DNA of 64,000 bases, taken from positions 30,628,001 to 30,692,000 of the forward strand of contig JBNRSN020000015.1 of NCBI GenBank assembly GCA_051313645.2, in the 5' to 3' direction. Both the position numbers and the translations under genes were made by a program. Under the pieces are notes generated by a model. The model did not search any database, had not been told where the DNA came from, and saw nothing but the letters and a program-made list of their open reading frames with translations. Origin of the DNA: Centroscyllium fabricii (lineage: Eukaryota). Numbering within the stretch: the first letter of the stretch is position 1; each line of letters begins with the position of its first letter. Positions 19,265 to 36,505 of this stretch are shown here, one piece after another.

Positions 19265-19716
19265 ACAGAAAATGCTGGAAAAACTCAGCAGGCCAGGCAA
19301 CATCTGTAGAGAGAAATATAGAGTCGACGTTTTGGGTTAGGACCCTTTGTCAAGACTAAAGTGAGGAAATGAAACAGGTAGGAAGGCCGGGGGAGCTGAG
19401 AGGGACAAAAGGGAAGAGAAAACAAAAGAGAAGGGAGAGCCAAAGAGAAAAGACATTAAAGGGTATTCAAAATGAGACGAGATGCTGATGGGAAAACAAA
19501 AGAGAAGAGAGAGTACTTTTGTTTTTCCATCAGCATCTCATCTCATTTTGAATACCTTTTAATGTCTTTTCTCGTTGGCTCTCTTCTCTTTTGTTTTCTC
19601 TTCCATTTTGTTCCCTCCCAGCTCCCTCGGCCTTCCTACCTGTTTCATTCCCTTGCTTTAGTCTTAACAAAGGGTCTGAACCCAAAACGTCAACTCTATA
19701 TTTCTCTCCGTGAGAT
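19265..19716. repeat. Fold-back (inverted) pair of Penelope-like terminal repeats
   Basis: ~200-bp arms (about 19301-19503 and 19517-19716) with a short spacer; same terminal sequence as 43196-43280 and 56060-56140. Confidence 0.82.
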
Positions 19717-35010: not shown

Positions 35011-35080
35011 CTTTATCTTGGCAGACAGTATTTTCTGGTACATGGCTCATAAACACCTACCAAGGCTCAGTCATTTAGAG

Positions 35081-35892
35081 CAGGGGTCCCCAACCTTTTT
35101 GGCTCCGCGGCCCATTTTGAGGTTCGCAATTTTTTCGCGGGGGGGGGGGGGTGTGCTGGCGGGGGTGGGGGGGGGAGGAGTCAAGTTCAAGCAATCAAGC
35201 AGCATAACAAAACGCAATACTGTTCCAGCTCCAGCCTACTGAAATACAATCTCTTCACTCTCATTGAAGAGGTTCGGGTTCCAATAAGCAGCATGACCCT
35301 TCTCTCAAAATGCTTTTTACCAGTATTTGGCACAAAGGAAACACTAAAGTTTAGTGTTTCCTTTGTGCCAAATGCTGGCAAAAAGCATTTTGAGAGAAGG
35401 GTCATGCCGCCCACCGGAACCCGAACCTCCCCAATGAGAGCGAAGAGACTGCACCCCAGCAGGCTGGAGCTGGAACAGCACCGCGCCCCGTCATGCCGCC
35501 TGACCGCCCGAACCCGACACCCCCGCCCTGCCGCCAGCCCCCCCGCCCCGCCGCCAGCCCCCCACCCCCCCCGGCAGCACCCCGCCCCCCCCCCCGCCAG
35601 CCAGCAACACACACACTTCGTAAGGCCTACGTCTGTGCCTCGAACGCCCCCCTCCTCACCGCTTACGTCGTGACGTAAGGTCGTAAGCGGTGAAAAAAAA
35701 GGCGTTCGAGGCACAGACGCAAGCCCTACGTCTGTGCCTTGTTAAACGGCTTCCGTCTGTGCATCGTTAAATGAGGCACAGACGGAAACAAGCGGTCCAG
35801 GTCCAAAAAAAAGCGTTATTTTAAAGGAGGAAGCGCAAATCGTTCCGCGGCCCGGTAAAATTGTCCCGCGGACCGGCGGTTGGGGACCACTG
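35081..35892. mobile_element. hAT (Charlie-type) MITE
   Basis: TIRs CAGGGGTCCCCAACC / GGTTGGGGACCACTG; exact 8-bp TSD ATTTAGAG. Confidence 0.95.
35180..35518. repeat. Palindrome with 169-bp arms around a single base (35349)
   Basis: Gap-free arm alignment with 32 substitutions, all transitions. Confidence 0.92.
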
Positions 35893-36505
35893 ATTTAGAG
35901 CGCAAAACACTTCTGATTTAAAATGTCACCTATGTTGGTGGCATTTTCGAATTAGTCTGAATAGTAAATCTTCACGTGTTTGCAGTTGGTCTCATATTTT
36001 CTGATCATAAATCTCACATCCAGCATTTCCCCACTTTCGATAGCACTGCTTACACCATTGGTTGAAGGTTTTTATGATTTACAGTGTTTCATATGATGGG
36101 GGTCTGTTTTACATGAGGCAGTACTGGGTCCCACTCCCAATACTGTTTCAAGTAGGATACAAAATGTCCTGACTTTTTTTCTTCTAGCTCCTTTTCCTGC
36201 TGTCACCTTCCTCCTGCCCTTCCCCCCACAACATGTGGGGCGATTCCCACTGGAGGCGGGTTCAGTTTGGGTGGTTTTGAAACCCGCCTCTACTGATAAT
36301 TTTCAAAAAATTGCAATTTTCTCTAATTTGGCCACTTGATTTCAGAGGGGTGGGATGTCTTTGGTCAATTAGTGTTTAGGGACTGAAACTCGCCTCTGCA
36401 GACATCACCTTTCCAGCCTGATTTTATGGCTTCTTGCTGCCTTGGATCATTCCACAGGATTTCTGCCTATGCTGCACCACCTACAACATATTCTGAGAAA
36501 CCACT

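Follow-up and report, generated by a model that had tools for sequence, protein, structure and literature searches.

The window analyzed here is a stretch of 64,000 nucleotides of the Centroscyllium fabricii genome (contig JBNRSN020000015.1, positions 30,628,001 to 30,692,000). It contains a hAT-type transposable element bounded by an exact 8-bp target-site duplication, and the element carries a large palindrome whose arms differ from each other almost only by A-to-G exchanges. The features of the locus are listed in Table 1.

Table 1. Features of the hAT-type element and its palindrome (positions in the window)
Feature	Position	Strand	Remarks
Left 8-bp target-site duplication	35073..35080	+	identical to 35893-35900
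Non-autonomous hAT element (MITE, 812 bp), assigned from sequence	35081..35892	-	autonomous partner's transposase on minus strand
Terminal inverted repeat and subterminal sequence, transposase 3' end	35081..35138	.	no A>G in waves B and E
G-rich minisatellite tract, variable length	35139..35179	+	present already in unedited sister elements
Left arm: ancestral unedited 3' subterminal sequence	35180..35348	+	A at 30/33 sites in L151 (3 gaps), 33/33 in L237, 32/33 in L247
Right arm: inverted copy with 31 A>G on minus strand	35350..35518	-	33/59 A changed in family majority
C-rich tract (inverted G tract) and stump of the edited left arm of hairpin 2	35519..35620	+	
Hairpin 3, from 5' subterminal repeats	35630..35719	-	left arm T>C on plus (A>G on minus); T run in sister elements
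5' subterminal sequence and terminal inverted repeat	35720..35892	.	A untouched in wave B; in wave E, untouched beyond the first few bases
Right 8-bp target-site duplication	35893..35900	+	identical to 35073-35080

The two arms align without gaps around a centre at position 35349 and are identical at 137 of 169 positions; when the centre was shifted by up to 2 bases, each alignment gave at most 43 matches. Thirty-one of the differences are A in the left arm and G in the reverse-complemented right arm, and one is T/C. If the four classes of transitions are equally likely, the probability of 31 out of 32 differences falling into one class is 2e-17. The differences become denser outward, from 2 in the inner 58 bases to 16 in the outer 41. 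Most of the A/G differences are outside CpG (9 of 31 in CpG). A hairpin of the minus strand is predicted to stay wholly paired through G:U wobbles, with a folding energy of -605 kcal/mol, compared to -486 kcal/mol predicted for the plus-strand hairpin, which contains A:C loops. The other fold-back of the window (19309-19708), which served as a control, has mixed differences: 7 of the plus type, 5 of the minus type and 8 others. The initial annotation had described the gapless arms with their one-directional differences, the outward density, the changes outside CpG, the paired minus-strand hairpin, the mixed divergence of the other fold-back and the hAT-type host element, and our measurements agree with it on these points. 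The G-rich and C-rich tracts that flank the arms are genuine parts of the element in many copies.

Judging from its sequence, the element is a MITE that arose by internal deletion from an autonomous hAT element of 3.2-4.0 kb with a ZBED5/Buster-like transposase. Both ends were present at 28 of 30 loci, and the 8-bp target-site duplications of these elements were exact in 24 and had one mismatch in 4. Longer relatives continue into a transposase gene on the minus strand; ten of the 14 long elements that were fetched had both ends, exact duplications and a length of 3.2-4.0 kb, and the short terminal inverted repeats are common to the MITE and its autonomous partner. The transposase open reading frames (ORFs) are 625-626 amino acids long, and their best atlas match was ZBED5-like, at 0.99, with hAT dimerisation clusters also matched at 0.95. 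A Pfam scan of the transposase gave only a sub-threshold zinc finger, so that the protein is unnamed by Pfam, and a PDB search with it returned no match. hAT transposons of this type (ZBED5/FAM200-like) go by the names Buster and Charlie. Since the palindrome sequence lies downstream of the transposase stop codon, minus-strand A>G corresponds to A>G in the orientation of the transposase mRNA. Sequence depth at the termini (35081-35136 and 35837-35892) was approximately 10 times that of the interior, and loose ends at the termini belong to relatives that are more abundant and combine these ends with different interiors. Other mobile elements, retroelement-like by eye, are inserted in four of the loci (L008, L060, L161 and L200), and a 560-aa pol-like frame (L154:49-1728) lies beside locus L154.

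In a search of the same genome, all 40 copies that were scored shared the asymmetric palindrome, with 96-100% identity along most or the whole of its length. These copies lie in both orientations on many contigs and are a subset of 2056 first-look candidates; the candidate numbers obtained (2056, 1371 and 199) are loose first-look figures and not genome-wide counts of subfamilies. The family-majority palindrome has 33 A/G differences and one T/C, and the window departs from the majority at 4 places. The pattern had been described as an event of this single copy; instead, the asymmetry is common to the family, with one ancestral origin followed by amplification. Contigs from four public short-read runs of two studies, of which the best-matching may be from the assembly's own sample, also cover both arms, and A>G and T>C account for most of the differences in them; among the runs listed for the element, none was of RNA. 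A sequencing or consensus artefact was rejected, since all 40 copies are alike, subfamilies inherit the pattern in both orientations and short-read contigs span both arms.

The direction of the change was determined from relatives of the element. In a transposase-bearing element, L151/L154, a single arm is joined directly to the 3' flank of the gene, with A at 30 of 33 sites and gaps at the remaining three, and its other end consists of plain T-run repeats. Sister elements were searched for with a query containing these ancestral 5' repeats, which retrieved 24 further loci. Part or all of the arm is present at 21 of them, and its inverted partner at none. Site observations at the sister loci gave A in 336 out of 338 cases and T in 191 out of 191. 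It thus follows from the informative sites of inversion-free sisters that A is the ancestral state, contrary to the earlier hint in favor of G, and that APOBEC is excluded; this is the polarising comparison with other copies that the initial annotation had proposed. In addition, hairpin 3 is present as a perfect unedited hairpin at three sister loci (L238, L244 and L248), indicating that inversion came first and mutation later. No match to the perfect A/T form of hairpin 1 was obtained with the one exact two-piece pattern and one outer-motif pair used.

Of the three candidates put forward initially, two thus fall away. Deamination by AID/APOBEC of C on an exposed minus strand of the left arm, with G ancestral, had in its favor that the window alone cannot separate the two directions and that the contexts of the G state look GG-rich. 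However, A is ancestral in the non-palindromic relatives, so that G>A is not the derived change. An artefact is contradicted by the inheritance of the pattern by subfamilies in both orientations and by its presence in independent runs. Together, we regard these two readings as having next to no chance of being correct, and the third candidate, ADAR-edited RNA written back into DNA, as the best reading.

Autonomous elements that bear the hairpins contain the left arm, the right arm, a second hairpin (hairpin 2) and a third, direct copy of the arm. The founder wave of changes is on the minus strand and changed 31 of 56 A in the right arm, 17 of 42 in the third copy and 3 of 11 and 13 of 28 in the two arms of hairpin 2. 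Over these four arms there are 65 A>G vs. 3 other changes; in the left arm, 0 of 42 A were changed. The ORF, compared between the old and the new lineage, has 35 mixed changes in 1985 columns. When the founder edits were undone and the minus strand was folded in silico, the right arm was predicted to pair with the third copy (167-168 of 170 bases) and not with the left arm. The plus-strand fold instead placed the right arm, upon its completion, on the left arm, with 165 of 170 bases predicted to be paired. These folds suggest that the one-arm pattern arose because the right arm was paired with the third copy, which was also edited and was later deleted, while the left arm was an unpaired bystander. 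The outward rise in density would then reflect the position of the right arm in the larger hairpin formed with the third copy. The lone T/C difference coincides with an A>G edit in the third copy, from which it was probably copied across. Fold-back synthesis with misinsertion of G was considered as a cause of the one-arm pattern, but edits are also present in the third copy and in both arms of hairpin 2, and this explanation was dropped.

Several later waves of change were distinguished on top of the founder wave. Classification of 108 distinct elements yielded 50 of the main type, 27 of wave B, 2 of wave D and 29 of wave C. Waves B and D affect both arms on the plus strand and wave C affects both arms on the minus strand. 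Compared with the main type, wave B has 69 changes, all of them A>G on the plus strand, and wave C has 39 T>C, plus 27 A>G of a conversion-like kind. Since B and C depart from the same parent type in opposite directions, and the root cannot sit on both branches, the polarity follows without a root. A further wave, E, found by a search with an unedited right end, is a small subfamily (6 copies seen) descended from the type of the window, and 48 of its 49 changes are A>G. Waves B and E each have private edits, and their parents differ by flanking markers. At the same time, every right-arm edit of E falls within those of B and D; some of the plus-strand waves may therefore depend on one another, and wave D may represent a second round that acted on an E-like template. 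We conclude that there were at least three editing events, and probably five. No singleton hyper-edited copies were seen among the 108 classed elements, which are best matches to a few queries.

The changes are confined to stems. In wave E, 48 of 99 sites were changed in hairpin 1 vs. 3 of 83 outside (p = 1e-12), and in wave B, 51 of 81 vs. 4 of 142 outside. In wave C, the corresponding figures were 38 of 64 vs. 3 of 592 in the spacer and ORF, with 12 of 125 in the 5' hairpin region, and T>C is found at both ends of the autonomous element across an unedited ORF. The stub of the third copy has 0 of 23 sites edited in wave B, the mirror image of the founder wave, as the left arm is predicted to pair with the right arm first in the plus strand. 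An inverted repeat of approximately 30 bp near the transposase start (L155/L156, L158-L167) is unedited and longer neighbouring hairpins are edited, which fits a length threshold for editing. We also examined 28 other inverted pairs in 556 kb of flanks, and the 25 most skewed of these, the fold-back at 19309-19708 among them, had no such bias. One locus (L222) resembles wave D with a denser hairpin 1, and some autonomous copies (L107, L108, L111, L116, L118 and L119) have G changes in hairpin 2; these patterns may be either more waves or conversion. The G-rich minisatellite (35139-35179; 35519-35600) has almost no A, and its unit is similar to what A>G change would make of the end of hairpin 2. 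The tract may be a relic of an older wave, though it is present already in unedited sister elements.

Conversion between the arms was separated from site-wise change. In main-type copies, patches of G in the left arm occupy 321 of 1650 sites opposite C vs. 4 of 1300 elsewhere, and 24 of the 50 copies have at least 4 converted left-arm sites. Since the patches sit opposite C, new editing was rejected as their cause in favor of arm-to-arm conversion, and conversion-prone sites were excluded when the contexts of B and D were counted. Conversely, in 33 of 33 copies of waves B, D and E that were scored, A>G stands beside a retained T that conversion would have changed, indicating that these waves are site-wise change. 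Patch conversion runs in both directions (for example, L026, L029, L035, L059, L069 and L070), and the differently marked arms are a ready assay for conversion within hairpins.

We next compared the changes with the signature of ADAR. Across the waves, the changes are A>G only, on one strand per event, and are restricted to long paired stems with both arms affected. In the founder wave, the fraction of edited A depended on the 5' neighbor: U, 23/32; A, 24/51; C, 11/30; G, 6/24 (chi2 p = 0.003). This order is that of ADAR, and the level of founder editing is near the 50-60% ceiling given together with that order in PMC3113232. In wave E, only 2 of 19 sites with a 5' G were edited (p = 2e-4). 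No 5'-neighbor bias was detected in waves B, C and D (chi2 p = 0.85, 0.92 and 0.96); pooling of the founder with B, C and D gave p = 0.055, while the value for the founder and E combined (p = 2e-5) comes from a pooling chosen after the data were seen. The neighbor-context check suggested initially thus shows the expected avoidance of 5' G in the founder and E, and no such avoidance in B, C and D. A preference for 3' G was not significant in any wave tested; Xenopus ADAR1 is reported to have no 3' preference (PMC3113232). Two arms exceed the in vitro ceiling at approximately 70% (B right, 28/41; C left, 30/42), which would need more than one round or conversion. In the left arm of wave E, A opposite C was changed at 28 of 33 sites vs. 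5 of 26 for A opposite U (p = 7e-7), and part of this preference could be conversion. Hot sites are shared by waves on opposite strands (E vs. the third copy, p = 0.002; D vs. C, p = 8e-5). Each paired strand has a zone of approximately 20 unedited bases at its 3' end, which speaks against ADAR.

Some of these properties would also be produced if ADAR acted on DNA itself, the RNA of one arm annealing to the displaced sense DNA of the other arm, dA being converted to dI and replication fixing G with no reverse transcription. Such editing would likewise be strand-specific and require inverted repeats. Nevertheless, dense dI in DNA should be repaired, edits on one strand in both arms would need two hybrids, and which copy was spared (the left arm in the founder wave, the third copy in wave B) follows intramolecular folding. 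DNA/RNA hybrids are substrates of ADARs, which deaminate dA in them most readily at dA-C mismatches and in their usual context, but hybrids react approximately 20-fold slower than RNA duplexes and all-DNA duplexes are unreactive (PMC5389660), which points to RNA. We consider direct editing of DNA improbable, though it is the foremost of the alternatives to RNA. Extruded single-strand DNA hairpins of the element, attacked by some adenine deaminase, would explain stem confinement and strand purity with no RNA step. This is the least plausible of the remaining mechanisms, for the same inactivity of ADAR on all-DNA duplexes (PMC5389660) applies and the 25 most skewed of the other fold-backs in the flanks lack the bias. 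We know of no adenine deaminase acting on extruded single-strand DNA hairpins.

An error-prone polymerase presents a different case. Pol eta has a WA motif that would also fit the 5' U/A bias, and the inversions and deletions show that gap repair is active in the family. Pol iota prefers G over A opposite T (PMC10779026), so insertion of G opposite T by Pol iota or eta during gap filling (in excision repair or template switching) could belong to the process that also makes the inversions. Yet the changes skip unpaired sequence and resume in distant stems, and they favor A:C sites. They are accompanied by almost no other errors (69/69 and 48/49), while Pol iota is inaccurate at G and C too. Finally, the perfect unedited inverted forms at L238, L244 and L248 place mutation after inversion. 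We therefore view misincorporation as quite unlikely, somewhat more so than direct editing of DNA.

The reading that we prefer, and hold to be likely on the basis of sequence comparisons, is that ADAR-edited RNA was written back into DNA at least three and probably five times, followed by amplification by the transposase. The comparisons show that the ancestor carried a single arm, with A at the variable sites, downstream of the stop codon of the transposase. An inverted triplication then produced the left arm, the right arm and the third copy. The right arm, the third copy and both arms of hairpin 2 acquired A>G on the transposase-sense strand; the ORF and the left arm were spared. The third copy was deleted and the MITE was amplified by the transposase with 8-bp duplications. 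Later subfamilies took further waves of A>G on either strand, in both arms and almost only in stems, with patches also copied between arms. The enzyme would be ADAR acting on folded RNA, which may have been the mRNA of the element itself or a host transcript reading through it from either side. Edited forms may survive better, as mismatched arms would destabilise cruciforms.

Cut-and-paste elements have no RNA step of their own. The return to DNA may have occurred by LINE/Penelope-type retroposition of a read-through transcript or, alternatively, by RNA- or cDNA-templated repair or conversion, perhaps at an excision break; the observations agree with each of these routes. The edits of one wave span most of the MITE, and those of C lie at both ends of the element, which suits a read-through RNA covering the element, with a single event not being implied. 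A search with one flank of one wave-E copy revealed no second near-identical place that would mark a founder retrocopy. Several returns to DNA within approximately 2% ORF divergence is a high rate, and counts against the write-back reading. A bolder version, in which this hAT lineage repeatedly passes through RNA, the excision break being repaired from the element's own ADAR-edited transcript, is a speculative proposal that we would not expect to hold. If true, transcript-templated excision repair would make RNA edits heritable, defuse fresh palindromes and drive subterminal sequence toward G- and C-rich tracts, and it would constitute natural germline RNA-templated repair with a built-in barcode. 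With an intact transposase, parent hairpins and hot and cold sites at hand, the long-standing question of germline write-back of RNA edits, and of its route, becomes testable. The process is also a possible mechanism for the G/C-skewed interiors of vertebrate MITEs, and such asymmetries are a warning, since they mislead repeat dating and polarisation.

In their short terminal inverted repeats, 8-bp duplications, 625-aa transposase and internal deletion derivatives, the elements described here resemble Buster/Charlie hATs and their MITEs; unlike in those, the subterminal regions have been repeatedly rebuilt by inversion and then hypermutated by A>G. Inverted repeats in transcripts are known ADAR substrates, as in the hyper-edited fold-back RNAs of transposons in, e.g., C. 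elegans, where, in the accessible parts of the reports, the edits are described in RNA and not as changes fixed in the DNA of the element (PMC7084138, PMC4317174). The scars left by APOBEC DNA editing of LTR retrotransposons (Knisbacher and Levanon, PMC4866542) are likewise clustered, of one type, strand-biased, fixed in mobile elements and inherited by subfamilies, but they are G>A on single-stranded cDNA, whereas here the changes are A>G, in stems and in a DNA transposon. In that study, the DNA transposons of 80 genomes were the negative control and gave only weak, unbiased clusters (PMC4866542). Cut-and-paste transposons serve as a negative control for editing scars since they lack reverse transcription, and one lineage here has such scars. 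A literature search over titles and the openings of abstracts found no printed case of such scars in DNA transposons. The closest parallel is provided by avian retroviruses, whose proviral DNA has retained A-to-G hypermutation by ADAR (Felder 1994; Hajjar and Linial 1995, as cited in PMC12925331). There too, approximately half of the adenosines of an inverted repeat became G on one strand and ended in DNA. Retroviruses, however, reverse-transcribe naturally, while the carrier here is a cut-and-paste transposon without an RNA step, and the edits here are germline changes that recurred over several rounds, affected both strands and spread to many copies by amplification. This case adds a complete series within one genome, from ancestors without edits through perfect intermediates to several edited descendants, alongside an intact transposase.
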